DNA of 54,594 bases, taken from Candidatus Taylorbacteria bacterium RIFCSPHIGHO2_02_FULL_43_32b (GTDB lineage: Bacteria; Patescibacteriota; Minisyncoccia; Phycocordibacterales; 2-02-FULL-43-11). This document shows positions 10,536 to 50,511 of the stretch, piece after piece. The notes under the pieces are model-generated. The model had not been told where the DNA came from. It made no database searches and saw only the letters and a program-made list of their open reading frames with translations. Made by a program: the position numbers and the translations under genes. Within the stretch, counting starts at the first letter, position 1; every line of letters begins with the position of its first letter. The stretch spans positions 1 to 54,594 of the forward strand of contig MHRK01000019.1 of assembly GCA_001820955.1 (NCBI GenBank), in the 5' to 3' direction.

Positions 10536-10716
10536 AGCCTGTTCATAGTCAAATCATAAACAATAAATGAGGTGTGTGACTGTAAGCCGACAATGATATG
10601 TCCCTCCTCGAGATATGTGATAGCCGCAGGCAAATTTAATTATTTTTGCAGGCAGCAGATTATGAACCGGCAACTAGTTGAGATGAGTTTTGAGAAAAGT
10701 TCAGTATAGGAAAAAA

Positions 10717-13053
10717 ATGATTTTGGGGAGATATAACAACAGGCGAAAGAAAACAGCTTCTTTGCTCGCAGTCGTTTTTTCTGCAGTGCTTTTTGCTGTA
10801 ATCCCACTTTCTGCTCATGCGATACCAAGCATGTCAGAAATGCTTGACGGCTTGTCAGCCCTCATCGATCTCTTCACTTCGGGCCGGTTAATCGCCAACA
10901 TCGCTTTCCTTTTCCTTACCATCATATCGGGCGCTGTTACATTAACAGGCGCCATTCTCGAAAAAAGTATCCAACTGTCAATACTCCACTTTGGCGATCT
11001 GGCCGGAGCTACCGGCATTGTCGGAATTGGATGGGAAATTGTTAGAGACCTGTCCAATTTGGTTTTCATCTTTCTCATTCTTTGGGTTGCGATCTCTACA
11101 ATCCTCGGCTTAAACCACGGCAGTGCTATGGGTACAATTATACGAATTGTTATAGCCGCGGTGCTCATAAACTTCAGCCTCTTTATAACCAAGGCAGTTA
11201 TAGACGTGGCCAACATCGTTGCTCTTCATTTCTATAACTTGATCATAGGTAGCAATGACGGCAGTTTGAGCGGTGTTTTTATGAGAGGGTTCCAGGTGCA
11301 AGGAATTTTTGACGGCAGATCAGTTGACCTCTCGACAGGGGCACCTTTTAAAATAATTGCTGTAAGCGTTTATGGCTCAATTATGCTTTTGGTCGCGGCG
11401 TGGATTTTTTTGGCCGCAGCGGTGATGATGATAACAAGAACAATCTACCTTGTTTTTTTGATGATTCTTTCGCCGTTTGCTTTCATAGCTTGGGTAATCC
11501 CCGGAATGGGGGGATACACGCACGAGTGGTGGAATAAACTTTTCAAGCAAGCTTTCTACGCGCCGATTTTTATGATTATGATTTACATAATCGGAAAAGC
11601 CTGGCAAGACGGCGGACTAAATACTGTTTTGGGAAGCGGATCCACCACCATGGCCACTGCATTTAACGGCATTTCAAGTGGAGCCTCATCCTCGCAGATA
11701 ATCGGGCAAATGGGCATCTTTGTAAATTTCATGACTTTCACGGGACTTTTGGTCGCCACACTCATCGTAGCCAATTCACTGGGCGCCAAAGGCGCGTCCA
11801 CAATGATTTCCTGGGGCAAGAAGTTGCAGGGAATCGGACAAGGTGTCGTCGGTAGCTACTCCGTCGGCAAAATCGGTGCCCTTATTCAGGATAAATATGG
11901 AGATAAATGGAGAGCCAGCAACAACATTGGTCAACGGCTACTTCTTCGCACAACCAATGCTATGCAAGAACAAAAGTGGGGGCAGGGAAGCAAGAGCTAC
12001 AAAGATTATAAAGAAAAAGGTTCTGTGCTTAGTGCCGGCGAGGAAGAGGTCAAGAAGAATATGGACAAGTTGGAAAATAACCCGACTGAATTTGCCAAAT
12101 ATTTTTCGCGACTTAGCGCGGAACAACGCAAATATGCTTACAAGAGTATGTCAGCCAGGAATCGTGTAGTCCTGCAACAAGCCGTGGCTGGACAACTTAG
12201 AGATCGCGCGGATAATCTGAGCCCAGCGATTGCAGGCCTCGACCAGTCATTGGCCGTATTATCAACAAAGCTTTCGCCGGAAGAAAGAGAAAAAACAGAG
12301 AAAGCGACAAGGGAAGCGGGCAGAGTAGACGAGCAGAGACAAATTCGAAATACACTTGGAGCATTTGTTCGACCTCTAACAGAGGCCATGAACGCCTTGT
12401 CTGTGGCTCAAGTTGCTGGAAATGCGGCAGAAGTGGCCAGACTTCAAGCGGAAATACCAAGAATTGAGGCGAACATCCGAACAAATCACGAGCAAGAAAT
12501 TAGAACTCGGCTTCAAAACCTTCAGAGTGGAGAGGTTAGCAATATGTCAATGCGAGATCTTCAGGCTTTGGCTCCTTATCTTTCTACGTCTCAATATCAA
12601 AAAACTAAAGATTCGCTGACAACAATAGAACAAAACCACCTTGAAATAGCCCGCTTTAACAATCTTGCAACTGCGGCCGGTCAAAATATTTCCTTAAACA
12701 ACAACAACCAAATTACCGTCACCTCAACAGGGGCAATCGACGAAACAGCTCTCCAAAATCAAATACGCCAGATGGACCCAAGAGACATTGCTGAAATGGA
12801 TGCGTCCCTCCTTCGTGTCCCTGCGATAATTAAGAACTTGTCACGCAAAAACATGGACGATTTGCTTAAGAGAACAGATTTGGATAGCGCAACAAGACAA
12901 AGTATCAGGAGAACGATTAATGACTTGATTCTGCAAGCAGCCGGAGGAACACCAGTGGCGCAAGCTGGAACACTGCAACCTAACCACGAACAGAATATTC
13001 AAGACATTGAGGATTGGCTACAAAGGGATCCTCGAGGTAGAAACTTTGTCTAA
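10717..13053 (+). CDS. Polytopic membrane protein, VirB6/TrbL-like, with long C-terminal coiled-coil tail
   Basis: Signal/TM then about 7 hydrophobic helices over the first ~400 aa, then about 380 aa charged Q/E/R-rich helical region; position next to PrgI-like and VirB4 genes; ATG at 10717. Confidence 0.5.
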   Translation: MILGRYNNRRKKTASLLAVVFSAVLFAVIPLSAHAIPSMSEMLDGLSALIDLFTSGRLIANIAFLFLTIISGAVTLTGAILEKSIQLSILHFGDLAGATGIVGIGWEIVRDLSNLVFIFLILWVAISTILGLNHGSAMGTIIRIVIAAVLINFSLFITKAVIDVANIVALHFYNLIIGSNDGSLSGVFMRGFQVQGIFDGRSVDLSTGAPFKIIAVSVYGSIMLLVAAWIFLAAAVMMITRTIYLVFLMILSPFAFIAWVIPGMGGYTHEWWNKLFKQAFYAPIFMIMIYIIGKAWQDGGLNTVLGSGSTTMATAFNGISSGASSSQIIGQMGIFVNFMTFTGLLVATLIVANSLGAKGASTMISWGKKLQGIGQGVVGSYSVGKIGALIQDKYGDKWRASNNIGQRLLLRTTNAMQEQKWGQGSKSYKDYKEKGSVLSAGEEEVKKNMDKLENNPTEFAKYFSRLSAEQRKYAYKSMSARNRVVLQQAVAGQLRDRADNLSPAIAGLDQSLAVLSTKLSPEEREKTEKATREAGRVDEQRQIRNTLGAFVRPLTEAMNALSVAQVAGNAAEVARLQAEIPRIEANIRTNHEQEIRTRLQNLQSGEVSNMSMRDLQALAPYLSTSQYQKTKDSLTTIEQNHLEIARFNNLATAAGQNISLNNNNQITVTSTGAIDETALQNQIRQMDPRDIAEMDASLLRVPAIIKNLSRKNMDDLLKRTDLDSATRQSIRRTINDLILQAAGGTPVAQAGTLQPNHEQNIQDIEDWLQRDPRGRNFV

Positions 13054-13070
13054 ATAATTATTTTAATGGT

Positions 13071-14084
13071 ATGGAATTTACACGAGAACAAATTAGGGAA
13101 GCCTGTCTCAAATTGCCACCCGAACTACAGGACGAAATTTTCAATTTGAATATCGCGCCGATGGTCAAAGGGTGGGGCAATAAATATGAACTGCATGTGG
13201 ATAGGACGGGAACACTCGCTGATGAAATTGGCCTGGTTCTTTTCGGACTTGTACCATCATCCGAATTTGTCAGTAGATTAAAAAAATTGGAGCTTGGGAC
13301 CGAAAAAACAAACTCCTTGGCAACGGAAATTAACGAGACTATTTTCAAAAAAATTCGCTCAAATTTGAGAGCCGCAAGTGAAACGCCAGTCTCCGCCCTC
13401 ACTCCAACAAAAACTGAAGGTATAGAATCTGTTTCTAAAACAGAATCCCCGATCGCGAAGCCAGAAACAAAACTTCAGTCCGCATTCGACAAGAACAAAC
13501 TTTTGGCGGAAATTGAAAACCCATCGCCGGCATCTGTCGAAGTCAAAACAGTACCGCCCCCGGTTAATTTGCCGATAGAGCCGACTGTCAAAACGGAATC
13601 CTCCTCCGCCTTAGCCGAAACCGCCATCTGGCGCACCATGGAGCGAGATGTCGCCAAACACGGCGGAGGAGCGAGCCCCTCACCGGAAACAACTCCGATT
13701 AACCGTGGCAAATTTGGCATGGGTAACGCACCAACAGCAATGAATAATGCATTACGAATTACGAATAATGCAGAAGAAGACCAACTTAAGACCGGGAGTG
13801 AGCAAAGTACCAAAGAAACGGCAAAACCGATTGCCCCGGTTGCACCAAGACCAGCCGAGGAAAAACACTATTCACCGCCGGTTCCGCCTGTCACTCCTAA
13901 ACCTCCGCAAGCCACTCCTCCCGCTCCAATCAAAACGGAAGAAAAAAGATTCGATGTTCCCCCCGTACCAATCGTCACACAAAAGAGTGATAACATGCTC
14001 GATAACAAACTGACAAAAATTGTCCGAATTCCGTCCGAAAGAAAGAGATACGTGGTTGATCCATACCGTGAACCTACTGAATAG
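13071..14084 (+). CDS. Hypothetical protein, small N-terminal domain plus Pro-rich disordered tail
   Basis: Long ORF with PPVPPVTPKPPQATPPAP low-complexity tail; carries an in-frame cassette-arm copy at 13739-13771. Confidence 0.55.
   Translation: MEFTREQIREACLKLPPELQDEIFNLNIAPMVKGWGNKYELHVDRTGTLADEIGLVLFGLVPSSEFVSRLKKLELGTEKTNSLATEINETIFKKIRSNLRAASETPVSALTPTKTEGIESVSKTESPIAKPETKLQSAFDKNKLLAEIENPSPASVEVKTVPPPVNLPIEPTVKTESSSALAETAIWRTMERDVAKHGGGASPSPETTPINRGKFGMGNAPTAMNNALRITNNAEEDQLKTGSEQSTKETAKPIAPVAPRPAEEKHYSPPVPPVTPKPPQATPPAPIKTEEKRFDVPPVPIVTQKSDNMLDNKLTKIVRIPSERKRYVVDPYREPTE
13739..13771 (+). repeat. 33-nt copy of the cassette-A left arm embedded in-frame in a CDS
   Basis: AATGAATAATGCATTACGAATTACGAATAATGC versus 14089-14121 AATGAATAATGTATTACGAATTATGAATAATGC (2 differences). 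Encodes MNNALRITNNA versus MNNVLRIMNNA. Confidence 0.8.
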
Positions 14085-14088
14085 CGGA

Positions 14089-14553
14089 AATGAATAATGT
14101 ATTACGAATTATGAATAATGCGGGGAAAAAGAACCAAAACACGGAAAGTTCATTAAATAAAATCAGCTTTTTTACTGACCTCAACGCATGGAAAGAAGGT
14201 CATAAATTAGTTTTGCTCATCTACAAATTGACCAAAAACTTCCCCTCAGACGAAAAATTTGCCCTAATAGATCAGATGCGAAGAGCAGTAATCTCTGTTA
14301 CTTCCAATATTGCCGAAGGTTTCAGCCGTCAATCTTACAAAGAAAAACTGCAATTTTACTCCATCGCCCTCGGTTCCGTTACTGAAATACAAAATCAACT
14401 ATTCACATCTCGAGATATCGGTTATTTATCTCAAGTAGATTTCCAAAAAACGCTGGATCAATCCATAATTACTCACAAGATAACTAACGGCTTGATTAAA
14501 AGTTGCAAAGGTTTTATTAACCATAATTCATAATTCTTTATTCATAATTCATA
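14089..14553 (+). mobile_element. IR-bounded mini-cassette A (four-helix-bundle cargo)
   Basis: Fills the whole gap between stop 14084 and start 14557. Perfect 13-nt inverted repeat: GAATTATGAATAA (14106-14118) and TTATTCATAATTC (14538-14550), within longer similar AT-rich arms. Confidence 0.65.
14090..14533 (+). CDS. Four-helix-bundle protein (23S rRNA intervening-sequence protein family)
   Basis: LNAWKEGHKLVLLIYKLTKNFPSDEKFALIDQMRRAVISVTSNIAEGFSR...SVTEIQNQL matches the family signature. Confidence 0.85.
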   Translation: MNNVLRIMNNAGKKNQNTESSLNKISFFTDLNAWKEGHKLVLLIYKLTKNFPSDEKFALIDQMRRAVISVTSNIAEGFSRQSYKEKLQFYSIALGSVTEIQNQLFTSRDIGYLSQVDFQKTLDQSIITHKITNGLIKSCKGFINHNS

Positions 14554-14556
14554 CTC

Positions 14557-14994
14557 ATGCGCTTCCAAGTTCCACAATTCATCGGGGTAGAGGACAAAGT
14601 TTTCGGTCCATTTACCGTCAAACAATTCGTCTATCTGGTAGGAGGCGGTGCTATTTGCTATCTCATCTACAGGCTTCTGCCCGTATTTTTAGCTGTCATT
14701 TTTTTGACCCCGGTGGCCGCTCTTTCGATTGCTCTGGCTTTTGTAAAAATAAACGGCAAACCTTTTATTTTTACCCTTGAAGCGGCCATAAAATACTTCA
14801 TGGGTACAAAATTATATCTCTGGAAAAGAGACAAAATTACACCCAAAAAGGGAGCGGAAAAAACCGAACCGGCAGACACGATGGTCAATATCGCCATGCC
14901 GAGCCTTTCCGAGAGCAAACTGAAAGATTTGACTTGGGCGCTCGACATCAACAAAAGTGCCAATCAACGAATGACTACGAATATTGACAAATAA
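14557..14994 (+). CDS. PrgI-family (VirB3-like) small membrane protein
   Basis: N-terminus VPQFIGVEDKVFGPFTVKQFVYL followed by two TM helices, 145 aa, upstream of VirB4. Last 11 codons are encoded by a cassette arm. Confidence 0.7.
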   Translation: MRFQVPQFIGVEDKVFGPFTVKQFVYLVGGGAICYLIYRLLPVFLAVIFLTPVAALSIALAFVKINGKPFIFTLEAAIKYFMGTKLYLWKRDKITPKKGAEKTEPADTMVNIAMPSLSESKLKDLTWALDINKSANQRMTTNIDK

Positions 14995-15558
14995 AGTTAA
15001 CGAATAAAAACACAAAAGGCAATACAAATAATATGGAGAGCGGGATTCAGCCGAACCAACTGCCACAAAAGCAGTCTCAAAAAGAAATTATCTACAAAGA
15101 ACTGTCTTTTAAAATAGTCGGGGTGCTCTTTTCTGTACATAACGAACTCGGTAGATTTGAAAAGGAAAAAAGGTACAGCGATCTTACAGAGCTTAAGCTT
15201 GGTGAAGCAAATCTTCAATACAGAAGGGAACTTAACATCGGCTCGAATGCAAATATCGCAGACTTTATCATAGAAAATTTGATACTTCTCGAACTTAAAG
15301 CAAAACCTTCCATCCTCAAGGAGGATTTTCGTCAAATCCAAAACTACCTTCAAAAATCACAGCTAAAATTAGGAATAATTGCTAACTTCCGAAATCGGTA
15401 TCTTAAACCTGTCCGCATTATAAGAATCAATAAATTCAAGCAATAGCAAAACCGACACTGTCAAAGTATAATGATGTGATGATCACTAATCACAATTTAT
15501 ATTCCGATTAGTTAAGTTAATTAGTTAAGATTCGCATCATTCGTATATTTGCACTTGC
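14962..15558 (+). mobile_element. IR-bounded mini-cassette B (GxxExxY cargo, CGAAT-type arms)
   Basis: Left arm AATCAACGAATGACTACGAATATTGACAAATAAAGTTAACGAATAAA (14962-15008). Right arm 15501-15558 reverse-complements to GCAAGTGCAAATATACGAATGATGCGAAT.... Next gene starts at 15562. Confidence 0.55.
15033..15446 (+). CDS. GxxExxY-family protein (PD-(D/E)xK-like)
   Basis: IIYKELSFKIVGVLFSVHNELG..E....Y, ADFIIENLILLELKA, QIQNYLQKSQLKLGIIANF are the family hallmarks. Confidence 0.8.
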   Translation: MESGIQPNQLPQKQSQKEIIYKELSFKIVGVLFSVHNELGRFEKEKRYSDLTELKLGEANLQYRRELNIGSNANIADFIIENLILLELKAKPSILKEDFRQIQNYLQKSQLKLGIIANFRNRYLKPVRIIRINKFKQ

Positions 15559-15561
15559 CTT

Positions 15562-16227
15562 ATGACTAGTAAGTCAACTCAAGATTTCGTTTCAATAAAA
15601 GAGATTCGAGATGGGGTGGTAATCCTCAAGGATAATTCGATGCGCCTCGTAATATTGACCACCTCGGTCAACTTTGCCTTGAAATCAGAAGACCTCCAAC
15701 AGGCCATAATCGCCCAATTTCAAAACTTCCTAAACTCTCTGGATTTTTCGGTGCAGATATTCATTCAATCGCGCCGCTTTGATATAGAACCCTATCTCGT
15801 CCAGCTTGAAGAACGCCACAAAAGCCAACTAAATGAACTGATGAAAATCCAAACGAGAGAGTATATCAATTTTATCCGCGATTTTACCGAGAACACAAAC
15901 ATCATGTCCAAACATTTTTTTGTTGTCATTCCATACGCCGCCTCGCTTTTATCGAAAGGAGGGGGAAGTGTCACGGACAAGATATCCAGTGCCGTTCCGA
16001 TGTCGTTTCTCGGAAAAAAAGAGGACCGGGCGGGCACAGCAAAAAAAACCGAAGAAAGCTTCTTGGATAATAAAATTCAACTTGAACAAAGAGCTTCCGT
16101 GGTGGAACAAGGACTACTCCGCGTCGGGCTCCGAACGGCACGTCTCGACACAGAAGAATTAATCGAGTTTTATTACAAAATGTTTAATCCTGGCGATCTG
16201 GCAAAGCCGGCCAAAGTCACGCAGTAA
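15562..16227 (+). CDS. VirB4 N-terminal-domain-like stand-alone protein
   Basis: TQDFVSIKEIRDGVVILKDNSMRLVILTTSVNFALKSEDLQQAII..FQNFLNSLDFSVQIF resembles the N-terminal domain of Gram-positive VirB4/TcpF/PrgJ-type ATPases; no P-loop. Confidence 0.5.
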   Translation: MTSKSTQDFVSIKEIRDGVVILKDNSMRLVILTTSVNFALKSEDLQQAIIAQFQNFLNSLDFSVQIFIQSRRFDIEPYLVQLEERHKSQLNELMKIQTREYINFIRDFTENTNIMSKHFFVVIPYAASLLSKGGGSVTDKISSAVPMSFLGKKEDRAGTAKKTEESFLDNKIQLEQRASVVEQGLLRVGLRTARLDTEELIEFYYKMFNPGDLAKPAKVTQ

Positions 16228-16257
16228 CAAATTCCTAACTGACCAATGAAACTGGGT

Positions 16258-16704
16258 GCAAATTGAAAATGTAAATATCAAAATGCAAAATGACAGTGCA
16301 AAGTTTAAAAATGAATTTAAAAAAAGAGTCTACAGTTGGGTTTTAAAACTTGTTAAGTTTATAGATACATTGCCAAAGGATTCTACGAGCTCGGTAATGG
16401 GAAAGCAGTTGATTCGCAGTGGCACAAGCATTATTGCCAATTATACTGAAGCCACCTCGGCTAGTTCAAAAAAGGACTTCATTAATTTTTTTACCTATTC
16501 ACTAAAATCAGCTAACGAGTCTAAAGTTTGGCTTACTTTGCTTCGTGACACCGGAAAAGGAAGTGTAGAGGAGCTAAATTGGCTTTTAAGTGAACTCATA
16601 GAAATAGCCAATGTTCTAGCTTCTAGTATAATGACTATGAAGGGGAAAAGATGATTTAACATTTTTAATTGTCATTTTACATTTTGATTTTTTAATTTTG
16701 CATT
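16258..16704 (+). mobile_element. IR-bounded mini-cassette C (four-helix-bundle cargo, AAAATG-type arms)
   Basis: Left core ATCAAAATGCAAAATGACA (16277-16295) versus right core TGTCATTTTACATTTTGAT (16670-16688), 18/19 complementary. Right arm is nearly identical to the SET cassette arm. Confidence 0.65.
16283..16654 (+). CDS. Four-helix-bundle protein (23S rRNA intervening-sequence protein family)
   Basis: FKKRVYSWVLKLVKFIDTLPK..GKQLIRSGTSIIANYTEA..SKKDFINFF.YSLKSANESKVWL; ATG 16283 lies inside the left arm. Confidence 0.8.
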   Translation: MQNDSAKFKNEFKKRVYSWVLKLVKFIDTLPKDSTSSVMGKQLIRSGTSIIANYTEATSASSKKDFINFFTYSLKSANESKVWLTLLRDTGKGSVEELNWLLSELIEIANVLASSIMTMKGKR

Positions 16705-16750: not shown

Positions 16751-19700
16751 ATGAGTTTATTAGACAAAATTTTTCCAAAGAAAGACGCCGGCGACTCTCC
16801 GCAAATCGCCTCTGTTTTGCCTGCCGATATATATGAGGCAGGGGCACTTGAACTCCGCGATGTTATCGCCCCATCTGCTCTCAAAGTCTCGCCCAAATCC
16901 ATAAACCTGGGAAATAAAATCGTTAGAACATATTTCGTCATATCCTATCCCCGCTTTCTGACCGAAGGCTGGTTTGCCCCGATAATCAACCTGGACAAAG
17001 TTTTTGATATTTCAATATTCATCCACCCCATTGATACGGCAAGGGTTCTCAAACAATTTCAGAAAAAGGTGGCCGAAGTCCAAAGTCAGATAAACGAAAG
17101 GGAAAAGAAAGGTTTTGTCAGAGACCCCATTCTCGAAACAGCTTACAACGACCTTGAAAAATTGAGAGACGACCTTATGCAGGCTCAAGAAAAAATGTTT
17201 GATGTCGGTCTTTACATGTCCATCTACGGAGAGTCAGACGAAGAGTTGGACAAAATTGAGACTGAGGTGAGATCCATACTCGAATCCAAGCTTGTTTATG
17301 TAAAACCGGCGCTTTTCCAGGAGGAACAGGCTTTCAGAAGCATCGCCCCTCTCGGCACGGACGAAATTATGGTACACACAAAGCTAAACTCCTCGCCACT
17401 TTCCAGCCTTTTTCCGTTCATTTCCTTCGATATGACTTCCGACAAAGGTATTCTTTACGGCATCAATCGGCACAATGCGAGTTTGGTGCTGTTCGACCGC
17501 TTTTCTCTCGAGAATTACAACAGCGTGACGCTTGCTCAATCTGGATCTGGAAAAAGCATAAAAGGCAACGAACCCGTCCTCATAAAACAAAATGGAAAAA
17601 TATCACTCCGACCAATAGGTAGTGTCGTCGACAAACTAATAAGAAAGAGGGGGGCAGTACAAATAGATGAAGAAATGGACGGGGTGATCGACCCAGGACT
17701 GGAAGTCTACAGCTTTGACAAAAATATGAAAGGCTCGTGGAGTAAAGTCAGTGTTGCCGCCAGGAAAATAGCCCCCAAGCAATTCTATCGTTTCAAAACA
17801 AAAAGCGGACGTGCTGTTGTAACGACTGGCGACCACAACATGTTGGTTTTACGAAACGGTGAAATTGTAGCCACAAAAAGTGATAATGTTGGGTTGGGAG
17901 AAGCCGTGCCCTTACCGAGATCTGTAGAAACAGGCGATAATTTCGACACACAAATTAATTTACTTGAACTTCTGAAAAACCGCCCAAATATATATGTTGC
18001 CGGCGCGGCAAAAGAAATAAAATTGCTTCAAAAAGAATACGAAGGAAAGATTGTTAACTCGCGATTTGATAAATATCTCTACAAGTACCACGCGGGGCGA
18101 AGAATACCGATTGCCTATTTCCTCAAACTCTTACGAGCATCAAACCACACACCACAAGCAGTGGAGATTAGCAAATGGCGTGTTATTTCATCGAGCGGTA
18201 CTGGCTCTCTCCCCGCCATTTTCCCAATTTCCAAGGAATTCATGAGGATCATCGGCTATATTATTTCCGAAGGTACCATTCGAAAAGAAGCTGTTATTAT
18301 CAGCAACACCGAAAAAGAAGTTTTGGACGACATTTCAGACTGCCTTAAAAAAATGGGGTTAACCTTCTTCAGAAATACCAAAAGCATCCGCGTGGGTTCT
18401 GTCGTTTTCGTAAACCTAATTCACGCTCTCGGTCTTTACAAAAAATCAGCCGGAAAATGTATCCCTGGGATCGCATGGGGGACATCTACACAAAGCATGG
18501 CGGCCTTGCTTTCATCATACTTTGAAGGTGACGGTGGAGTAGACGGACCGTCAATCACAGCGGTGTCCAAATCAAAACGTTTGATTTCTGAGCTGTCTTA
18601 TTTTTTGTTTTTCTTCGGCATCGTAGGCCGCGTTCATAAGAGGGAAAAAAAATACGTCAAAACTGGTAAAAAAAGAACTTTTTGGCATATTTCCATAAGC
18701 GGGCAATCGTCACTTAACAGTTTTGCTGAAAAAATTGGCTTTGTTTCTAAAAGAAAAAATGCGCTTCTAAGTTCTCTTCTGAACAAAAATGAGAATACAA
18801 ACGTGGACACCATACCAACACTTGGACAACTAGTTGAAGAATTGACATTAATTTTCCCATACGGGATAAACGGAACATCTAATTTTCAAAAAATTAAATG
18901 GTCTAGATTTGACCCCACTCCTAAATATCTCAGAAAGGCAACTGATGAACTGGAAGAGAAAATCGAGGAGTTCGTGCAACTTGGGCAAAGCATAAAAATA
19001 TTATCGCAATTGCCCAAACTTCACAACATCATAGCTATTGCCAAGGAAAACAAAGAAGTCAACACCAAATTATGGAATCTCCTCGGTTCGAGTTGGGCAT
19101 GGATGCGAAACGAGACTGGAGCACCTCGTGCAGAGAACGCTCTTGCTCTTATAGAAGCTGTAGGTCTCACCTCTCCTAGTGTATCCGCAATTAAAACCGC
19201 CGTGCACGACAATGCAATAGCTCTGCATTTGCCAATGAAACACATGGACGCATCTTTACGGAGCGCTATAACAATACGGCCAGAAAGCAACACTTCCTAT
19301 GAAATGCTCCAAAAAGCGGCCTCTTTTATATCGACAGCATACCAGGAATGGGAAAATAATCTGCCGCGTGTGAAGGAAATAATCTCCATTTTACGCACGC
19401 TTATCGAAAGCGAACTATTTTTTGACCCGATTACCAAAATCAACACCATAGAAAACAAAAGCGAAAAATATGTTTATGACCTGACGGTAGACAATGAAGT
19501 ATTCCTTGCCGGATACGGCGGGATGTTTGTTCATAATTCATACGCCACCAAGCTCGAAATATTGCGCTCTCTTATGTTCGATACGGAAGTTATCGTTATC
19601 GACCCCGAAAGGGAATACGAGCAGTTGGCTGAAGCCGCCGGCGGAAAATATTTCAACATTTCGCTTAATTCCGAACACCACATTAATCCCTTCGACCTTC

Positions 19701-20557
19701 CCGCCCCAAGAGAAGACGAGCAACCAAGTGACGTTCTACGCTCGCACATCATCAATTTAGTAGGATTGTTTCGTATAATGCTGGGCGGTCTTACTCCGGA
19801 AGAAGACGCTATCGTTGATCGCGCCATCACGGAAACATACGCCCTAAAAGACATTACTCCCGACGAAAATTTTGCCAATTCTGAACCGCCTCTCCTTTCG
19901 GATTTCGAGACAGTTTTGGCCGGAATGGAAGGGGCATCTTCTCTTCATGAGAGGCTGACGAAATACAGCCGCGGCACATGGTCAGGCTTTATCAACCAGC
20001 CGTCAAACATTTCAATCGACAGCAAATTCGTAGTCTTTTCAATCAGAGACATGGAAGATGAACTGAAAGCCGTGGCAACATATCTCATTACAAACCACAT
20101 CTGGGCGGCAATCCGAAAAACCTTAAAAAGACGCCTTCTCATCATCGATGAGGCCTGGTGGATGATGAAATCTGAAGACACGGCCTCATTCTTGGCGCGC
20201 ATGGTAAAGCGCGGAAGAAAGTATTATTTGGGAGTCGCAACCATCACCCAAGACGTTGATGATTTCTTGAAATCTCCTTACGGCACTCCGATTATTACAA
20301 ACTCGTCTATGCAGATATTGCTCAAACAGTCGCCCACAACAATCGATCGTCTGCAACAAATTTTCCAGCTAACAGACGAAGAAAAGTATCTGCTTCTTGA
20401 ATCGGCCATAGGGGAGGGGATATTCTTCGTCGGCCTCAAACACGTAGCCATAAAAATCATCGGCTCCTATACCGAAGATCAGATTATCACGTCCGACCCC
20501 CACCAACTGCTAACAATCAAAAAAGCCAAGGAAGAGTTGCGCGCGACAGAAGGATGA
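16751..20557 (+). CDS. virB4: VirB4/TrbE-type T4SS ATPase interrupted by an in-frame intein
   Basis: Gram-positive-type VirB4 N-domain; Walker A AQSGSGK|S-YATK split by the intein; Walker B LLIIDEAWWM; ITQDVDDF. Confidence 0.85.
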   Translation: MSLLDKIFPKKDAGDSPQIASVLPADIYEAGALELRDVIAPSALKVSPKSINLGNKIVRTYFVISYPRFLTEGWFAPIINLDKVFDISIFIHPIDTARVLKQFQKKVAEVQSQINEREKKGFVRDPILETAYNDLEKLRDDLMQAQEKMFDVGLYMSIYGESDEELDKIETEVRSILESKLVYVKPALFQEEQAFRSIAPLGTDEIMVHTKLNSSPLSSLFPFISFDMTSDKGILYGINRHNASLVLFDRFSLENYNSVTLAQSGSGKSIKGNEPVLIKQNGKISLRPIGSVVDKLIRKRGAVQIDEEMDGVIDPGLEVYSFDKNMKGSWSKVSVAARKIAPKQFYRFKTKSGRAVVTTGDHNMLVLRNGEIVATKSDNVGLGEAVPLPRSVETGDNFDTQINLLELLKNRPNIYVAGAAKEIKLLQKEYEGKIVNSRFDKYLYKYHAGRRIPIAYFLKLLRASNHTPQAVEISKWRVISSSGTGSLPAIFPISKEFMRIIGYIISEGTIRKEAVIISNTEKEVLDDISDCLKKMGLTFFRNTKSIRVGSVVFVNLIHALGLYKKSAGKCIPGIAWGTSTQSMAALLSSYFEGDGGVDGPSITAVSKSKRLISELSYFLFFFGIVGRVHKREKKYVKTGKKRTFWHISISGQSSLNSFAEKIGFVSKRKNALLSSLLNKNENTNVDTIPTLGQLVEELTLIFPYGINGTSNFQKIKWSRFDPTPKYLRKATDELEEKIEEFVQLGQSIKILSQLPKLHNIIAIAKENKEVNTKLWNLLGSSWAWMRNETGAPRAENALALIEAVGLTSPSVSAIKTAVHDNAIALHLPMKHMDASLRSAITIRPESNTSYEMLQKAASFISTAYQEWENNLPRVKEIISILRTLIESELFFDPITKINTIENKSEKYVYDLTVDNEVFLAGYGGMFVHNSYATKLEILRSLMFDTEVIVIDPEREYEQLAEAAGGKYFNISLNSEHHINPFDLPAPREDEQPSDVLRSHIINLVGLFRIMLGGLTPEEDAIVDRAITETYALKDITPDENFANSEPPLLSDFETVLAGMEGASSLHERLTKYSRGTWSGFINQPSNISIDSKFVVFSIRDMEDELKAVATYLITNHIWAAIRKTLKRRLLIIDEAWWMMKSEDTASFLARMVKRGRKYYLGVATITQDVDDFLKSPYGTPIITNSSMQILLKQSPTTIDRLQQIFQLTDEEKYLLLESAIGEGIFFVGLKHVAIKIIGSYTEDQIITSDPHQLLTIKKAKEELRATEG
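17555..19537 (+). mobile_element. Intein (661 aa) with LAGLIDADG homing endonuclease in the VirB4 Walker A motif
   Basis: Ser1 after GSGK; block B TTGDHNMLV; LAGLIDADG-like motifs FMRIIGYIISEGT and LLSSYFEGDGGV; ends GGMFVHN with +1 Ser. Splicing restores GSGKSYATK. Confidence 0.85.
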
Positions 20558-20595
20558 TTTAAACAATCAGAATTACACACACTTCACTACTCAAA

Positions 20596-21033
20596 ATGGA
20601 AAAAAACGCACCCAAACAGAAGGTCTCTCACAATTTCAGACAAAATGAAGTGGGGGATAAATCGAATAGGGCAGAACCAAAACTACTGCCTGTGGTGTGG
20701 GCAATGCTTTTCACTGCCATGATCATTGTAGACCTTCTCCAAGTGGCGCTTGATGCCGTCGTCATAGGGTTTCTAGCGAATATACTTATAGACGTTGTTG
20801 TTGGCCCTTCACTTGCTTTATTCTTTTATCTGAGAGGGATGCTCGACAAGAAACTGACGATTAGCCTCATACTGGGCTTCGCACTTGATTGGTTGAGTCT
20901 CGGCATTTTACCGACCTGGACTGCGGATATTGCCTACGCATGGCTGGTCACTGACGGCTCAAAAACAATCGGCAAAGTGGCAGGGGCCGAAGAAACGGCA
21001 AAAAAGATATCTTCTAAACTGCTGAAAAAATAG
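20596..21033 (+). CDS. Small multi-pass membrane protein, hypothetical
   Basis: 145 aa with 3-4 hydrophobic helices, immediately after VirB4. Confidence 0.55.
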   Translation: MEKNAPKQKVSHNFRQNEVGDKSNRAEPKLLPVVWAMLFTAMIIVDLLQVALDAVVIGFLANILIDVVVGPSLALFFYLRGMLDKKLTISLILGFALDWLSLGILPTWTADIAYAWLVTDGSKTIGKVAGAEETAKKISSKLLKK

Positions 21034-24445: not shown

Positions 24446-24603
24446 TTCTTGCCCCCACTGCGTCTTTGCCCATACCTCAAATCATAGACCTCCTAGCAAC
24501 TTTCATTTCTTTTTTATTCTTTCTTTTTTATTCCCAGTTGCAAACCCTCAAACCCCACGAACCCGATGGCCTCCAACCCTTTTGCCCATACCGACACCTC
24601 ACC

Positions 24604-24629
24604 ATAAATCTAACTATAGTTACGTTTAT
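24604..24629. repeat. Palindrome P1 (imperfect) upstream of the wHTH/Cas2-fold gene
   Basis: ATAAATCTAACTATAGTTACGTTTAT: 11/13 self-complementary half-sites, 24/26 identical to the P2 core, ends 34 nt before the ATG at 24663. Confidence 0.7.
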
Positions 24630-24662: not shown

Positions 24663-25286
24663 ATGGGAAATATCGAATTTGAAGCCAAAAAAATCAGAAC
24701 CAGGCGAAGCATAAGAAAGGCAATTTTGGCTTCTATCGCGGTGGCTGGTTTTTTGAGTATAGCGGCCGTTGCGCCAAACGCCATGAGTATTCTTGAATTG
24801 GTAAGCGGTAAGAAAAAGAAAACCCCCAAATTTGCTATCACAAATTCTTTTAACAGACTTTTGGAAAGTGGGTATATCGAATTAAAAAATAAAGGAGGAC
24901 AAAAGAAAGTTGAAATAACCGGAAAAGGACGACTACTCCTAGCGAGAATTGGCGGGGGAAATTATGTACTTAAAAAGCCCTGGCGATGGGATAAACGTTG
25001 GAGAATAATCCTATTCGACATACCAGAAAATAGACGTCCGGTGAGGGTGAAACTCTGGAAAATGCTTCGCGCACTTCACTTTTACCCCATGCAAGACAGC
25101 GCGTGGGTTTATCCATACGACTGCGAAGACGTCATCAAACTCATAAAAACTGACCTGCACGTTAGTTTTGGAGTTATTTATATCATTGCGGAATCTATTG
25201 AGAACGACCGCAGGATTAGAGATTTTTTCGGACTCAATAAAAATTTGAAACACCTCAAAAAAATAGCTGCATTCATAACATCCTAA
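24663..25286 (+). CDS. PaaX-like protein: winged-helix domain plus Cas2-fold domain
   Basis: FNRLLESGYIELKNKGGQKKVEITGKGR (wHTH-like); WDKRWRIILFDIPENRRPVRVKLWKMLRALHFYPMQDSAWVYPYD matches the Cas2/PaaX-middle-domain pattern. Confidence 0.6.
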   Translation: MGNIEFEAKKIRTRRSIRKAILASIAVAGFLSIAAVAPNAMSILELVSGKKKKTPKFAITNSFNRLLESGYIELKNKGGQKKVEITGKGRLLLARIGGGNYVLKKPWRWDKRWRIILFDIPENRRPVRVKLWKMLRALHFYPMQDSAWVYPYDCEDVIKLIKTDLHVSFGVIYIIAESIENDRRIRDFFGLNKNLKHLKKIAAFITS

Positions 25287-25309: not shown

Positions 25310-25351
25310 GCCCTCAACATAAATGTAACTATAGTTACATTTATGTTGAGG
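25310..25351. repeat. Palindrome P2 (42-nt perfect)
   Basis: CCCTCAACATAAATGTAACTATAGTTACATTTATGTTGAGGG, perfectly self-complementary, 24 nt after the stop of the wHTH/Cas2-fold gene, followed by TGTTTTC. Confidence 0.85.
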
Positions 25352-25508
25352 GGTGTTTTCAAATCAAGCGGAAAAAAGTCTGCCGCAGAAAAAATCAACA
25401 TCGAGGAGTTAACTGATTAATTGAATTAATAGATTTCGTTACATTAACTCATGCAAAATACCTGAGTGAAAGAGTGTAGGATAAGAAACAATAGAAAAAT
25501 AAGTAGCT

Positions 25509-34357: not shown

Positions 34358-34392
34358 AAAAAATACTCTCGGTTTGCCGAGAGTATTTTTTA
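34358..34392 (+). terminator. Rho-independent terminator after tyrS (bidirectional shape)
   Basis: A-run, stem ATACTCTCGG (34364-34373) / CCGAGAGTAT (34378-34387), loop TTTG, T-run. Confidence 0.75.
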
Positions 34393-35420: not shown

Positions 35421-35427
35421 GGCTCAA

Positions 35428-35739
35428 GTGTAAAATGCAAAAATCAAAATGTAAAATTTATTGGAAGCGGGGAGAATGGCTACATAATAAATAGTGCGCC
35501 CGGTGGGGCGCTCATATCCAACCCGCCTGACGGCGAGGCAGGCAAAGTTTTCCCGGTGCCTCGCCTAATACCCCGCCGAGGTAATCCGAGGGTACCCCTT
35601 AGGGCGGGGATATGGACGAGGCAAATTTTATTGGGAGCGGCCAGAGGACTCTACGTTCGGCATGCGGATATTAACGATAAAATAAGATTTTAAAATTTTG
35701 CATTGTCATTTTGCACTTTGATATTTAAATTTTGCATTA
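35428..35739. mobile_element. AAAATG-type IR pair enclosing non-coding GC-rich cargo (gene-less cassette)
   Basis: Left GTGTAAAATGCAAAAATCAAAATGTAAAATTT (35428-35459); right 35691-35739 reverse-complements to TAATGCAAAATTTAAATATCAAAGTGCAAAATGACAATGCAAAATTTTA. No ORF over 20 codons between them. Confidence 0.55.
35457..35667. repeat. GC-rich dispersed structured repeat (copy c: one full unit plus the 5' module of a second)
   Basis: Unit 35457-35632 ends GGGCGGGGATATGGACGAGGCAAATTTTATT, followed directly by TTGGGAGCGGCCAGAGGACTC. Several GC hairpins, e.g. GGCGAGGC...GCCTCGCC. Confidence 0.7.
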
Positions 35740-46894: not shown

Positions 46895-49333
46895 ATGGCT
46901 GATATTAATTCTGGGCGATCAAAAAAGAGACTGGTTTTGCTTGATGCTCACGCCATTATTCACAGGGCGTATCACGCTCTGCCGGAATTTGCTTCATCAA
47001 AAGGGGAACCAACGGGTGCGCTTTACGGCCTCATTACGATGCTTATAAAGATTGTGAACGATTTAAAGCCGGATTGGGTTATCGCCGCATACGATTTGCC
47101 GAAGCCAACGCATCGCCACGAAGTTTACAAGGAATACAAACAAGGCCGAGCAAAAACGGACGACGCTCTTGTTTCACAACTCATCAAATCAAGGGATCTT
47201 CTGTCCGCGCTTTCCATTCCCATTTATGACAAGGAGGGATTTGAAGCGGACGATATTTTGGGAACCATTGTTGAAATACTGAAAGATAATGAGGATGTTG
47301 AAATAATTATTGCCTCAGGTGATATGGATACACTACAGCTCGTGGATGGCAATAAGGTTAAAGTGTATACGTTAAAGAAAGGGTTGTCCGATACCATAAT
47401 GTATGACGAAGAAGCCGTAATAAAACGGTTCGGATTTGAGCCAAAACTTTTGCCAGATTATAAAGGTCTTCGAGGCGACCCGTCAGATAATATTATTGGA
47501 ATTAAGGGAATTGGCGAAGTGACGGCTTCCTCTCTCATTAAGGAGTTTGGATCGATTGAGGGAATTTACGAAGCTTTAGAAAAGGGAGAAAAACCATTTC
47601 TTGATGCGGGCATAAAGGAACGCATCATTAAACTTCTTCGAGAAAACAAAGAAGAGGCGGAATTTTCGAAAATTTTGGCCTTAATAAGAAGGGATGCTCC
47701 AATTGATTTTGTTTTGCCGGAAAAACGATGGGCGGAAGAAGTGGATTTGAAAAAGACAGACCAAGCATTTTCGGAATACGAGTTTAGGACACTTGGCGCC
47801 AGGCTTCGGGATTCACTTAAAGCAAACGGTAGGGGTCAAGAGGGGGGCAGTCAAATTGGGGAGATTATTCCAAAAGAAGTGCGGCCGGCGGGGGATTCTG
47901 CAGAATTTCTGGAGTCGCCTTACGTTTTAGATCCAAAAGTTTTTCGCGAGGCGTCAATTATGTTGTGGATTTTAAATTCTTCAATTACTAATCCGACTAT
48001 CGAGGACATCAAGGTTTACTCCAGAAAAGAAACCTTGGGCGAGGCCAGGGATTATTTATTGTCGGAATTAAAAAAACAAGGTCTGTTCAGGGTGTACGAA
48101 GAAATAGAAAGACCGCTGATTCCGGTTATAGAAAAAATGAACGGGCATGGAGTGGTGGTGGATACGGAATATCTTAAGAAACTTGGCAAGGAATATCGGG
48201 CAAGTTTGGAAAAATTGGAAAAGCAGATATGGAAAGAGGCAGGAGTGCAGTTTAATATCGCGTCTCCAAAACAGTTGGGAGAAATCCTTTTTGTGAAAAT
48301 GGGAATGAAGGCTAAAAATCAGAAAAAAACGGCGGGGGGAGCGCTTTCGACAAAAGAGTCGGAGTTGGCCAAACTTGCCGATGAGAATCCAATTATCGGC
48401 AAAATTTTGGAGTACAGGGAATTGGCCAAACTTCTCGGAACTTATATTGATAATGTTATTCCGATGGTCGGTCTTGATGGGAAGCTTCGGGCTAATTTTT
48501 TGTCAGCCGGCACCACAACAGGAAGGATGTCCTCCGAAAACCCGAATCTCCAAAATATCCCGCATCACAGCGATCTTGGTATTAGGATTAGAAACGCTTT
48601 TGTCGCAGAGGAAAAATCCAAGTTGGTCGCTTTCGATTATTCTCAAATGGAACTTCGGATCGCGGCTTTTTTGGCGAACGACGAAGAACTGATCAAAATT
48701 TTTAAGGAGGGCAAGGATGTGCATTCGGGCGTGGCGGCGGCCGTCTTTAATGTACCTCCCGAAAAGGTTGATAAAGAGATGAGGAGGAGGGCCAAAGTAA
48801 TTAATTTTGGCGTGATGTATGGAATGGGGGTGTCGGCGCTTCAGAAAAATTTATCCAGCACCAGAGAAGAAGCAAAAATTTTTTATGATTCATACTTTAA
48901 AACTTTTGCCGGTTTGGCAAAGTATTTGGACGAGATAAAGAAAGAAACGGCCAGGAAAGGTTATACCGAAACGGTTTTCGGCCGCCGCCGCTATTTCGAG
49001 GGTATCAATTCCAAGTTGCCGTTTATCAAGGCGGCGGCCGAAAGGATGGCCATCAACGCGCCGATTCAAGGAACAGAAGCTGATATTATTAAGATTGCCA
49101 TGGTTAGAGTTGATGAATGGATTGGCAAGAACGATTTAAGTGACAAGGTATATCTCGAGCTCCAAGTGCATGATGAGCTGGTTTACGAAATAAAATCGGA
49201 AATGGTTGATAAAGTTGTGCCGGAAATAAAAGAAATTATGGAGAATGTTTTGCCGCTTTCCGAAACCCGCGGGGTGCCTATCAAGACGGACGTGTCGGTT
49301 GGGAAGAACTGGGGGGAGATGGAGAAAATGTAA
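46895..49333 (+). CDS. polA: DNA polymerase I (5' nuclease plus family A polymerase)
   Basis: 5'-3' exonuclease N-domain; motif A DYSQMELRIAA, motif B RRRAKVINFGVMYG, motif C QVHDELV. Confidence 0.93.
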   Translation: MADINSGRSKKRLVLLDAHAIIHRAYHALPEFASSKGEPTGALYGLITMLIKIVNDLKPDWVIAAYDLPKPTHRHEVYKEYKQGRAKTDDALVSQLIKSRDLLSALSIPIYDKEGFEADDILGTIVEILKDNEDVEIIIASGDMDTLQLVDGNKVKVYTLKKGLSDTIMYDEEAVIKRFGFEPKLLPDYKGLRGDPSDNIIGIKGIGEVTASSLIKEFGSIEGIYEALEKGEKPFLDAGIKERIIKLLRENKEEAEFSKILALIRRDAPIDFVLPEKRWAEEVDLKKTDQAFSEYEFRTLGARLRDSLKANGRGQEGGSQIGEIIPKEVRPAGDSAEFLESPYVLDPKVFREASIMLWILNSSITNPTIEDIKVYSRKETLGEARDYLLSELKKQGLFRVYEEIERPLIPVIEKMNGHGVVVDTEYLKKLGKEYRASLEKLEKQIWKEAGVQFNIASPKQLGEILFVKMGMKAKNQKKTAGGALSTKESELAKLADENPIIGKILEYRELAKLLGTYIDNVIPMVGLDGKLRANFLSAGTTTGRMSSENPNLQNIPHHSDLGIRIRNAFVAEEKSKLVAFDYSQMELRIAAFLANDEELIKIFKEGKDVHSGVAAAVFNVPPEKVDKEMRRRAKVINFGVMYGMGVSALQKNLSSTREEAKIFYDSYFKTFAGLAKYLDEIKKETARKGYTETVFGRRRYFEGINSKLPFIKAAAERMAINAPIQGTEADIIKIAMVRVDEWIGKNDLSDKVYLELQVHDELVYEIKSEMVDKVVPEIKEIMENVLPLSETRGVPIKTDVSVGKNWGEMEKM

Positions 49334-49786
49334 AATTAAAAAATCAAAATGAAAAATGACGATGTAAAATATAGAATGAAAGAAATCAATGGGGTAATTG
49401 TAGGAAAATCCAATGGAAAAGGGGAGGGGTTGTTTGCCGCGAGACCATTTGAGGCAGGTGAAATAATTCTTTCTTATGATAATTGGAAGCTAAAGGGAAA
49501 AAAGCATTTTCCGGATGGAGATGAACATGTTGATTATCAAGGCAGGGGAAAATATGTTAGTAGCAATCATCCCTATTCATACACCAATCATTCTTGCGAC
49601 CCAAATTCATATATTAAGTTTAGGACGATTGCCAGTGGTACGGTCTTCGCACAAAGAGATATCAAAGAAGGCGAGGAGATAACTTATGATTACGCCTTCA
49701 TTGATATGGATGGTTTCGGATTAAATACGGAAAGAAATTTTAAAATTTTAAGTTGTCATTTTTCATTTTGATTTTTTAATTTTACA
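49329..49786 (+). mobile_element. IR-bounded mini-cassette D (SET-domain cargo), 32-bp perfect inverted repeats
   Basis: TGTAAAATTAAAAAATCAAAATGAAAAATGAC (49329-49360) is the exact reverse complement of 49755-49786. It overlaps the polA stop, and holA starts 9 nt after the right arm. Confidence 0.8.
49349..49771 (+). CDS. SET-domain protein (putative lysine methyltransferase)
   Basis: GEGLFAARPFEAGEII, NHSCDPN, GEEITYDY. The start codon and the last codons are encoded by the cassette arms. Confidence 0.8.
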   Translation: MKNDDVKYRMKEINGVIVGKSNGKGEGLFAARPFEAGEIILSYDNWKLKGKKHFPDGDEHVDYQGRGKYVSSNHPYSYTNHSCDPNSYIKFRTIASGTVFAQRDIKEGEEITYDYAFIDMDGFGLNTERNFKILSCHFSF

Positions 49787-49794
49787 TTTAGTTC

Positions 49795-50511
49795 ATGCTC
49801 TATCTAATTTATGGTAACGATTGGCAAAAAGCTCGCGCAAAAGCTCGTGAGGTTTTGGATGTGCTGAAGAAAAAAAAGCCGGATGCCACCGTCGTTTCTC
49901 TTGAAGAGGGGGGAGTAAGTGAAGCTAAAATTGACGAATTGTCGGGAAGTCAGGGTCTATTCGAAAGAAAATTTATAGTTTTCGGTGATCGCGTCTGCGC
50001 CGATAGCCAAAATGCCGAGATTGTAGCGGATAAATTGGAAGTTATCGGCAAGTCGGAAAATGTTTTTGTGTTTTTGGAGGAAGGTGTGAAGGCTCCGCTT
50101 CTTAAAATCTTTGAGAAATATGCGGCAAAAGTTCAGGAATTTGCCAAAATCGAAAAAAAAGAAAGATTTAATTCTTTTTCTCTTGCTGATGCTCTCGGCG
50201 AAAGAAATAAACAAAAGCTTTGGATTTTATACCAAGCCGCTCTATCCGAAGGACTTTCTCCCGAAGAATTGCATGGCACTTTGTTTTGGCAGGTAAAAAG
50301 TCTTCGAGCGGCCGCTATTGCGAAGAGTGCCGATGAGGCGGGGCTTAAGCCTTTTGCCTGGACTAAAGCCAAAAGATTTTTGAGTAGATGGGATATTAAG
50401 GAGCTCGAAAATGTTAGTCAGAATTTGGTTTCTCTTTACCATGATTCGAGGAGGGGAGAGCATGAACTTGAGATTGCCCTTGAAAAATGGATATTGGATC
50501 TGCCGGTCTAA
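49795..50511 (+). CDS. holA: DNA polymerase III delta subunit-like (short form)
   Basis: N-terminus MLYLIYGNDWQKA... and length/helical C-part resemble HolA. Weak assignment. Confidence 0.45.
   Translation: MLYLIYGNDWQKARAKAREVLDVLKKKKPDATVVSLEEGGVSEAKIDELSGSQGLFERKFIVFGDRVCADSQNAEIVADKLEVIGKSENVFVFLEEGVKAPLLKIFEKYAAKVQEFAKIEKKERFNSFSLADALGERNKQKLWILYQAALSEGLSPEELHGTLFWQVKSLRAAAIAKSADEAGLKPFAWTKAKRFLSRWDIKELENVSQNLVSLYHDSRRGEHELEIALEKWILDLPV

Follow-up and report, generated by a model that had tools for sequence, protein, structure and literature searches.

Small genes between inverted heptamer arms at three junctions of a type IV secretion-like operon in a Paceibacterota bacterium: probable relatives of 23S rRNA intervening sequences

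The intervening sequences (IVSs) of bacterial 23S rRNA have been known since about 1990, and their origin, their mobility, and the role of the open reading frame (ORF) found in them are still unexplained (PMC4990558). Their canonical sites are helices 9, 25, and 45 of the rRNA; in Coxiella burnetii, two to three tandem GACAGAT heptamers lie just 5' of the start codon that opens the IVS gene, S23p, and excision by RNase III has been demonstrated (PMC4990558). Here, we describe three cassettes of comparable build in a 54,594-nt stretch of DNA (contig MHRK01000019.1 of Candidatus Taylorbacteria bacterium RIFCSPHIGHO2_02_FULL_43_32b; "the window" throughout), where small genes bracketed by inverted arms fill consecutive junctions of an operon resembling a type IV secretion system (T4SS). 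With the IVSs of Leptospira, C. burnetii, and Xanthomonas that carry S23p, a four-helix-bundle (4HB) protein, they share terminal inverted repeats able to form a long stem, an optional ORF of about 120 aa of family PF05635, and a sporadic distribution; tandem heptamers directly 5' of the ORF are shared with the Coxiella IVS in particular. They differ in that the window copies lie between protein-coding operon genes rather than in rRNA, and in that the cargo of such elements may be a GxxExxY gene, a SET-domain gene, a non-coding RNA, or nothing at all. We consider it probable that the three genes are the cargo of palindromic insertion elements akin to 23S rRNA IVSs.

The host is an uncultured groundwater bacterium of the candidate phyla radiation (CPR; Candidatus Paceibacterota, Parcubacteria), and the sequence of the window is also present in at least 24 public contigs; homologues are labelled Paceibacterota or Patescibacteria. 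The operon runs on the + strand at a chromosomal location, with dnaA and dnaN close by. A 787-aa membrane protein is followed by up337, PrgI, a TraC-N-like protein, a VirB4 with an intein, and then pilin-like genes. The three small genes occupy the junctions up337/prgI (cassette A), prgI/traC-N (cassette B), and traC-N/virB4 (cassette C), with their arms and reading frames on the + strand.

The cargo of cassette A (14090..14533) is a 4HB gene of family PF05635 (23S_rRNA_IVP, TIGR02436; E 1e-34), and the closest solved structure to its product is PDB 2gsc (Xanthomonas XCC0516). Its two candidate start codons, at 14090 and 14111, both fall within the left arm (14088..14122), which consists of the tandem heptamers ATGAATA/ATGTATT/ACGAATT/ATGAATA. 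The right arm (14515..14556) is made of complementary heptamers and ends at the prgI ATG (14557); the inverted repeat itself (14090-14120 / 14522-14552) is 31 nt long and 84% complementary. Cassette C also carries a 4HB gene (PF05635, E 1e-19), running from an ATG at 16283 to 16654 with an alternative GTG start at 16256; here, the closest solved structure is PDB 2rld. The left arm of this cassette (16256..16310; heptamers AAAATGT/AAATATC/AAAATGC/AAAATGA) holds the cargo ATG, and the right arm (16655..16704) matches the right arm of a SET-gene cassette elsewhere in the window at 34/36 positions. The repeat (16261-16310 / 16655-16704) spans 50 nt and is 76% complementary. In comparisons with relatives, 4HB cargo C gave a dN/dS of about 0.08-0.12 with saturated dS, and on this ratio the 4HB cargo is judged to be under purifying selection.

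Cassette B carries a gene of another family, GxxExxY (15033..15446; PF13366 PDDEXK_3, TIGR04256; E 1e-16). Residues D77, E87, and K89 of its product are unchanged across 30 homologues and supply the catalytic motif D...(D/E)-x-K; by its sequence, cargo B is a member of the PD-(D/E)XK nuclease family that has retained the active-site motif. The source names of GxxExxY homologues read only "GxxExxY protein", which does not confirm an occurrence of this family in 23S IVSs. The arms of cassette B are more degenerate than those of the other two. The left arm (14950..15032) is imperfect and overlaps the 3' end of prgI, and the right-arm region (15447..15561), of which approximately 15500-15556 is the pairing part, ends at the traC-N ATG (15562). 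A 20-nt core (14955-14974 / 15537-15556) extends to about 60 columns.

An earlier note on this DNA, made from its letters alone, had proposed three cassettes with inverted arms at consecutive operon junctions, and the gene families, the arm controls, and the folds bear this out. When all inverted repeats of the window are ranked, those formed by the arms of A, C, and the SET cassette fall within the first five. With only the flanks compared, cassette B reached an inverted-repeat score of 28, whereas the 262 control ORFs averaged 8.5 and did not go beyond 25. Calculated arm-duplex energies were -19.8 kcal/mol for A, -34.2 for B, -33.2 for C, and -56.1 for the SET cassette, each below all 200 shuffles, so that the unstable duplexes which the note had named as a reason to doubt the idea were not found. 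The arms are also paired in the minimum-free-energy folds of the whole cassettes. Chance inverted repeats around ordinary small genes might be expected in such a region, which is AT-rich (GC 0.38-0.39) and whose arms are of low complexity. However, the rank of the arms in 54.6 kb and the shuffle and ORF controls rule this explanation out, as does the recurrence of a core motif of the C arms, with seven occurrences in the window against 0.26 expected and further copies in metagenomes and rRNA; we give it a negligible probability.

The earlier note had described the arms as inverted AT-rich repeats. That they are inverted stands, but they are more than merely AT-rich, being arrays of short tandem units and their complements. 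Eight tracts with a periodicity of seven were found in the window, and they coincide with arms; the other lags from 4 to 12 gave zero or one tract each. Across 28 arms from the window and related genomes, the best period was 7 in 19 and 9 in 6, and the mean lag-7 identity was 0.59, compared with 0.34 +/- 0.016 for shuffles. The general anatomy is thus a left arm of about four to seven tandem 7-nt (sometimes 9-nt) units, a loop, and a right arm of complementary units. The loop is either 20-50 nt long or an ORF of about 400 nt whose ATG falls in the last arm units. Elements are placed exactly from the stop codon of one gene to the start codon of the next co-directional gene.

This placement has consequences for the proteins encoded on either side. 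It had been claimed that the arms provide the cargo start codons, so that cargo proteins begin alike, and the shared arm sequence ATG-NAA-AAT-GAC does give MQND in cassette C, MKND in the SET cassette, and MEND in metagenomic relatives. Likewise, the suggestion that an arm encodes the C-terminal end of PrgI holds: the last 12-13 or so codons of prgI (14557..14994; PF12666) lie inside the left arm of cassette B, and the tail of PrgI has 5-8 residues more than its counterparts in close relatives, whose homologous arm begins past the prgI stop (e.g., in locus L212). A solo copy of the cassette A left arm is present at 13739-13771 (+), in frame within up337, where it encodes MNNALRITNNA. It is identical to 14089-14121 at 31/33 positions (94%), and its predicted pairing with the cassette A right arm amounts to -14.9 kcal/mol. 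In-frame copies of this kind are known from the Rickettsia palindromic elements (RPEs), which occur in intergenic DNA, in frame within protein genes, and in RNA genes (PMC2229807). The copies that lie within up337, in the tail of PrgI, and at the stop codon of polA (see below) are a shared trait, whereas RPEs are without cargo genes and without heptamer-array arms.

Two other arm-like tracts in the window are recorded here as observations in their own right. The variable loop of a ksgA/rsmA-like gene (4809-5609) contains an in-frame heptamer tract at 5089-5126 (GCCTACG/GCCTAGA/GCCTAGA), whose unit is the arm unit of the junction-A cassette in a close relative (L209); no complementary partner was found near the tract. 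The motif TCAAAATGGAAAAAAAC at 20591-20607 lies across the start codon of the gene 3' of virB4 (MEKN...), possibly as the remains of a left arm from a fourth junction.

The arms of cassette C belong to a family that recurs within the window and well beyond it, which answers the call of the earlier note for a search for further copies. A fourth element (49319..49796, +) consists of C-family arms at 49319-49370 and 49745-49796 (52 nt, 88% complementary) around a SET-domain ORF (49349-49771), and is positioned precisely between polA and a holA-like gene. Its arms encode the stop codon of polA as well as the start and the end of the SET ORF. A fifth element (35425..35738), to which no strand is assigned, is flanked by ruvC and a yebC-like gene, each encoded on the minus strand, and has C-family arms around a GC-rich non-coding insert of about 230 nt. 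This insert folds strongly (z = -3.8) and has no Rfam match. Parts of it recur at 34448-34508 (90% identity), 46634-46664 (97%), 34388-34411, and 112-134, which points to a second, GC-rich family of dispersed repeats nested in the hairpin. A further copy is indicated by a public contig (L003) that equals the window up to the C left arm and then continues with another 4HB paralog, another right arm, and efp (L003 10690-11150). Either its assembly is chimeric, joined through the repeated arm, or the contig is a genuine recombinant. The switch, which falls inside the C left arm, implies that the genome has a further copy in another place and that assembly is at risk there.

In a metagenome search with a 29-nt degenerate pattern of the C right arm, at least 119 stretches matched, and 80 of these were read. 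Cargo-less hairpins of about 100-120 nt with a median loop of 44 nt made up 52/80 loci, and many of them fill gaps between co-directional genes with some 0-20 nt to spare. Five of the 80 loci hold 4HB genes 74-80% identical to cargo C, and at one locus PrgI has a 4HB cassette on both sides. As the cargo-less hairpins outnumber the gene-bearing ones, the unit appears to be the armed hairpin, and the gene either optional cargo or the mark of an autonomous form. One of the 80 loci has its arms around a tRNA gene: in L100, C-family arms (2072-2222) surround such a gene on the opposite strand, so that a stable RNA gene is found as the cargo of a hairpin.

The link to rRNA comes from the same search. 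Three of the pattern matches (L108, L156, and L164) lie within a Paceibacterial gene for 23S rRNA (1250 bits with the Rfam LSU model). This gene has four hairpin insertions, at model positions of approximately 139 (helix 9), 284, 583 (helix 25), and 1218 (helix 45). C-family arms bound three of the four, those in helices 9, 25, and 45, and the remaining insertion has arms of an AAAGTC type that is also found around PrgI in L032 and L014. On contig L156, C-family and AAAGTC-type arms flank rplJ and fill the rplJ/rplL junction, and the proteins encoded there were confirmed as L10 and L7/L12. When the arms of cassette C, the SET element, and the 35.4-kb element were aligned with the 23S and rplJL arms, one consensus emerged, AAATGTAAAATTnAAAAATCAAAATGnAAAATGACAAT. 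For the C family, the one family in which arms were compared with those of bona fide rRNA IVSs, the analogy with IVSs is therefore supported by arm sequence identity besides the cargo families. The IVS-like logic that the earlier note saw in a protein-coding operon is upheld in its structural and evolutionary parts. The window cassettes lie outside any 23S or 16S rRNA gene, in contrast to the three matches just named, and they have two other hallmarks of an IVS: an extended stem from complementary arms in A, B, and C, and a PF05635 ORF in A and C (PF13366 in B). Their predicted stems of 30-50 bp would be compatible in size with an RNase III substrate. As judged from these sequences, IVS-type elements are not confined to rRNA, and one family occupies both 23S rRNA genes and protein-coding operons.

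To place the cassettes in an evolutionary context, 14-kb loci from 80 species-representative genomes were compared, with TraC-N proteins 51-60% identical. The usual gene order is up787-up337-PrgI-TraCN-VirB4, and in most cases the junctions are free of inserts and only some 0-50 nt wide. Had the same genes stood in every relative, the idea of insertion would have suffered; instead, most of the 80 operons have empty junctions, and relatives differ in the cargo that they carry and in whether a gene or a bare hairpin is present. This comparison indicates that the cassettes were inserted relative to a compact ancestral operon. The 80 loci hold 13 4HB genes, all 13 at one of the same three junctions, and 11/13 have flanking inverted repeats above the 95th percentile of controls. 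When hairpins with an inverted-repeat score of at least 14 were counted, gene-bearing or bare, they were present at 28/179 of the three junctions and at 4/476 of the other co-directional junctions (Fisher p = 4e-13).

Such a strong preference raises the question of whether the hairpins serve the host, as intercistronic processing or stability signals that set the ratios of PrgI, TraC-N, and VirB4 mRNA, with the genes riding in their loops. RNase III sites between the early genes of phage T7 are an example of such signals. The roughly 20-fold enrichment at the three junctions flanking prgI and traC-N holds across diverse genomes, distant lineages (L175, L157, and L209) have this triple arrangement too, and the arms are more conserved than synonymous sites, the dS of the 4HB cargo being saturated. 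Yet about 80-85% of the orthologous operons do without a hairpin at these junctions, and where one is present its arm sequence, its period, and its cargo vary between lineages. Unrelated selfish genes use the same junctions as well, namely a RelB/YafQ toxin-antitoxin pair, an ORF6N gene, and a GIY-YIG gene, and no RNA-strand-specific signature was seen. On balance, we regard a host-selected signal as an unlikely explanation of the cassettes.

The closest relatives (71-77% identity) illustrate how the content of these junctions changes. L209 has the layout 4HB / PrgI / 4HB / TraCN / 4HB / VirB4; L210 has 4HB / PrgI / 4HB / TraCN / short hairpin / VirB4; and L212 has 4HB / PrgI / GxxExxY / TraCN / degenerate hairpin / VirB4. 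From these layouts, the cargo family switches at one and the same junction, and the hairpin at a junction may come with a gene or without one. In L209, the left arms of the cassettes at junctions B and C are identical at 45/45 positions, and the two cargo genes show many scattered substitutions in the middle and are almost identical in the 3' third, a pattern that is a signature of duplication followed by gene conversion. Beside these relatives, junctions in L032 (4536-4626 and 5069-5172) and L014 hold near-identical bare hairpins of about 90 nt on either side of prgI. In their loops, as judged by eye only, TATAAT stands 17 nt after a left-arm TTTATA or TTCATA, an arrangement that is possibly an internal promoter.

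Short hairpin repeats of similar size are well known in other bacteria. Correia/NEMIS elements of Neisseria and ERIC and YPAL of enterobacteria are MITEs (miniature inverted-repeat transposable elements) that are co-transcribed with their neighbours, and Correia hairpins have been proposed as RNase III targets (PMC2229807). The present elements resemble them as hairpin repeats of about 100-150 nt in co-directional spacers, with many copies per genome and a proposed post-transcriptional effect through cleavage of double-stranded RNA. They differ in their ends and contents: Correia elements have defined 24-bp terminal repeats, TA target duplications, and no cargo genes, whereas here the arms are variable tandem arrays of 7- or 9-nt units, no target duplication was seen, and a subset carries conserved protein genes.

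These parallels bear on a second alternative, in which the cassettes are ordinary MITE-like DNA transposons. The arms would then be terminal inverted repeats mobilised in trans by a transposase encoded elsewhere, the RNA hairpin and any cutting by RNase III would be incidental, and the genes would be passengers. Several observations fit. The bare hairpins of about 100 nt that prevail (52/80 loci) are short, non-coding, and multicopy; the arms are homogenised within a genome; neither an orientation bias nor a G-U bias was detected; and Correia elements, RPEs, and ERIC are known in operons, coding regions, and RNA genes (PMC2229807). On the other hand, neither the window nor the flanks (14 kb) of the 80 loci yielded a transposase, and a target-site duplication was not discernible at the five window elements, whose ends are hard to define. 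Arms built as short-unit arrays that differ between genomes are unlike transposase-specific terminal repeats, insertion at the tips of rRNA helices 9, 25, and 45 demands compatibility at the RNA level, and the 4HB cargo is kept under purifying selection and tied to heptamer arms across phyla. We therefore think it improbable that the elements are plain MITEs, and file them as best we can as IVS-type, MITE-like hairpins with optional 4HB or GxxExxY cargo in CPR protein-coding operons.

Tandem heptanucleotide repeats, too, have a history of their own, the cyanobacterial STRR sequences reportedly having been described by Mazel in 1990. Arrays of GGGAATC in Xanthomonas, with 70-75 convergent pairs per genome, and of GGGGAYT in Nostoc were the subject of a 2015 study, which states that there is no detailed literature on heptameric repeats (PMC4692102). 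Like the arms described here, STRR and GGGAATC arrays are intergenic tandem 7-nt units near the upstream gene, often in convergent (inverted) pairs. They differ in having been described as simple-sequence or G-quadruplex motifs, unlinked to 4HB genes, IVSs, or mobility. We examined six plasmid 4HB genes, from Calothrix, Nostoc (three), Pseudanabaena, and Riemerella. In all six, heptamer arrays lie on either side of the gene, and no others occur within +/-600 nt; the arrays are inverted in five and direct in one. One case is the pair (TAGGGAG)n/(CTCCCTA)n, which lies between nrdB and nrdA; another is a set of arrays between cas6 and cas4. The latter belong to a Pseudanabaena plasmid (L216; NZ_CP112875.1 46268-46627), on which the 4HB gene lies between cas6 and cas4 and the arrays are direct and long, with (AAAGCTA)n upstream and (AAAGCCA)n downstream. 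For GxxExxY genes on plasmids of other phyla, inverted repeats were found in 2/4 and a direct repeat in 1/4. Given this mixed result, the rule of heptamer arms is claimed for 4HB genes only.

The 4HB family has a second known context, as the Avd protein of diversity-generating retroelements (DGRs), and the repeats could in principle be the template and variable repeats of such an element. PF05635 is homologous to Avd (PMC10053308), the 4HB fold and family being shared (PF05635 / PF22296), and the Avd models gave weak matches. However, these scores are far under the curated cut-offs (21.5 bits against 40 for bAvd PF22296, and 22.8 against 80 for NF033474), no reverse transcriptase is present in the window, and the repeats are inverted short-unit arrays around a gene instead of a template/variable pair with adenine-specific differences. 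The scores and the lack of a reverse transcriptase in the window effectively rule the DGR reading out, and we assign it a very small probability. Integron gene cassettes were also considered. An integron cassette has one attC 3' of a promoter-less gene and is arrayed next to intI. Here, arms are present on both sides, the cassettes are interleaved with operon genes, and there is no integrase in the window, and this candidate was rejected.

Returning to IVS-like insertion elements, which we favour, a mechanism can be proposed. The cassettes would be co-transcribed with the operon, as suggested by a scan of 12.9-17.1 kb for promoters and terminators, in which there was no excess and the junctions had no intrinsic terminators. 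In the transcript, the arms would pair as AU-rich duplexes of 30-50 bp, and by analogy with rRNA IVS stems these could be cut by RNase III. Cut in this way, the polycistronic mRNA would come apart at every junction and release the cargo RNA, whose start codon would be sequestered in the stem until then. The excision demonstrated for rRNA thus serves as the model for RNase III cleavage of the operon mRNA, which we infer here. Spread and exchange of cargo would take place in the DNA, through copying and through arms that recombine or undergo gene conversion with each other. The 4HB protein (a pentamer, Avd-like and able to bind nucleic acids), the GxxExxY nuclease, or both may work in trans upon arms belonging to their own family, with gene-bearing copies as autonomous forms and bare hairpins as non-autonomous ones. 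Two observations hint at action in trans: how many copies are bare relative to those with a gene, and the presence of odd-cargo copies whose arms are shared with a 4HB cassette of the same genome.

Several results weigh against this picture. If the arms were maintained as RNA duplexes, their mismatches might be expected to favour G-U over A-C on the sense strand, but no such excess was found (31 vs 22 in cassettes, p = 0.27; 25 vs 32 in short hairpins). The orientation of short hairpins relative to flanking genes is likewise unbiased (10 same, 12 opposite), so the complementarity of the arms could be a property of the DNA that arises without selection at the RNA level. An RNase III gene, looked for within the window only, was not found there. 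The window has neither a transposase nor a reverse transcriptase, and target-site duplications are not visible at its five elements, the ends of which are difficult to fix in AT-rich arrays. The metagenome loci were chosen by an arm pattern, which inflates the apparent conservation of their arms. Finally, the preference for three junctions of one operon could reflect selection by the host instead of selfish insertion.

A broader proposal is that rRNA IVSs are the rRNA-resident members of a cross-phylum class of mobile hairpins with heptamer arms. Copies with 4HB or GxxExxY genes would be its autonomous members and bare or odd-cargo copies (SET, tRNA, or non-coding RNA) its non-autonomous ones, and CPR operon mRNAs would be made monocistronic through RNase III. 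We put this forward tentatively, as a possibility that we hold to be well short of an even chance. No description of IVS-type elements in protein-coding operons was found in the literature, where a mention in the original Leptospira IVS papers, in Elhai 2008, or in Mao 2009 is still conceivable.

The surroundings of the cassettes deserve a brief account. The operon starts with the gene of the 787-aa membrane protein (up787; 10690-13053, +), followed by up337 (13071..14084, +), which has no Pfam match and ends directly 5' of cassette A in a conserved ...DPYREP-x-E motif. A strain variant (99.3% identical; L004, L006, and L008) has a 30-nt in-frame deletion and clustered substitutions at 13888-13934, in the proline-rich part of up337. 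Arm changes were looked for among these strain-level variants, and none was informative. The TraC-N-like (VirB4-N-like) gene (15562..16227, +) is TraC-like. That it is a fragment of a split virB4 was considered and rejected, as the 221-aa TraC-like gene stands free in about 7000 homologues. The virB4 gene (16751..20557, +), which encodes a TraG P-loop ATPase, is split by a LAGLIDADG intein that the VirB4 proteins of L210 and L212 do not have, and a UvrD-like helicase (1699-4746) contains an intein as well. This genome is rich in selfish elements.

Elsewhere in the window, a PaaX_M gene with a Cas2-like domain (24663-25286) lies between 36-nt inverted repeats (24594-24629 / 25319-25354) that are 89% complementary. 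Each copy of this repeat is itself a palindrome centred on TAACTATAGTTA, and the downstream copy corresponds to a perfect palindrome of 42 nt (25311-25352), which may be an operator or a terminator. An adenosylcobalamin (AdoCbl) riboswitch at 37439-37590 (Rfam RF01482, 53 bits) precedes a 621-aa gene (37764-39629). It was the only match in an Rfam scan of the window, which contains no rRNA.

The comparative data describe one family of elements that occupies both 23S rRNA and mRNA operons, carries cargo in some copies and none in others, and shows turnover of the cargo and concerted evolution of the arms. One practical hazard for studies of these bacteria is that the arms may cause chimeric metagenome assemblies, for which L003 is a candidate. 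The findings also tie the unexplained abundance of heptamer tandem repeats, such as STRR and GGGAATC arrays, to a specific gene family; if a cross-phylum hairpin class does exist, the excess of heptameric tandem repeats in bacterial genomes would be explained. For CPR bacteria, the proposed mechanism predicts an RNase III-dependent layer of operon processing. More generally, the question of what an IVS is can now be put to the test, as one that concerns a general mobile hairpin element together with the 4HB and GxxExxY proteins that belong to it.

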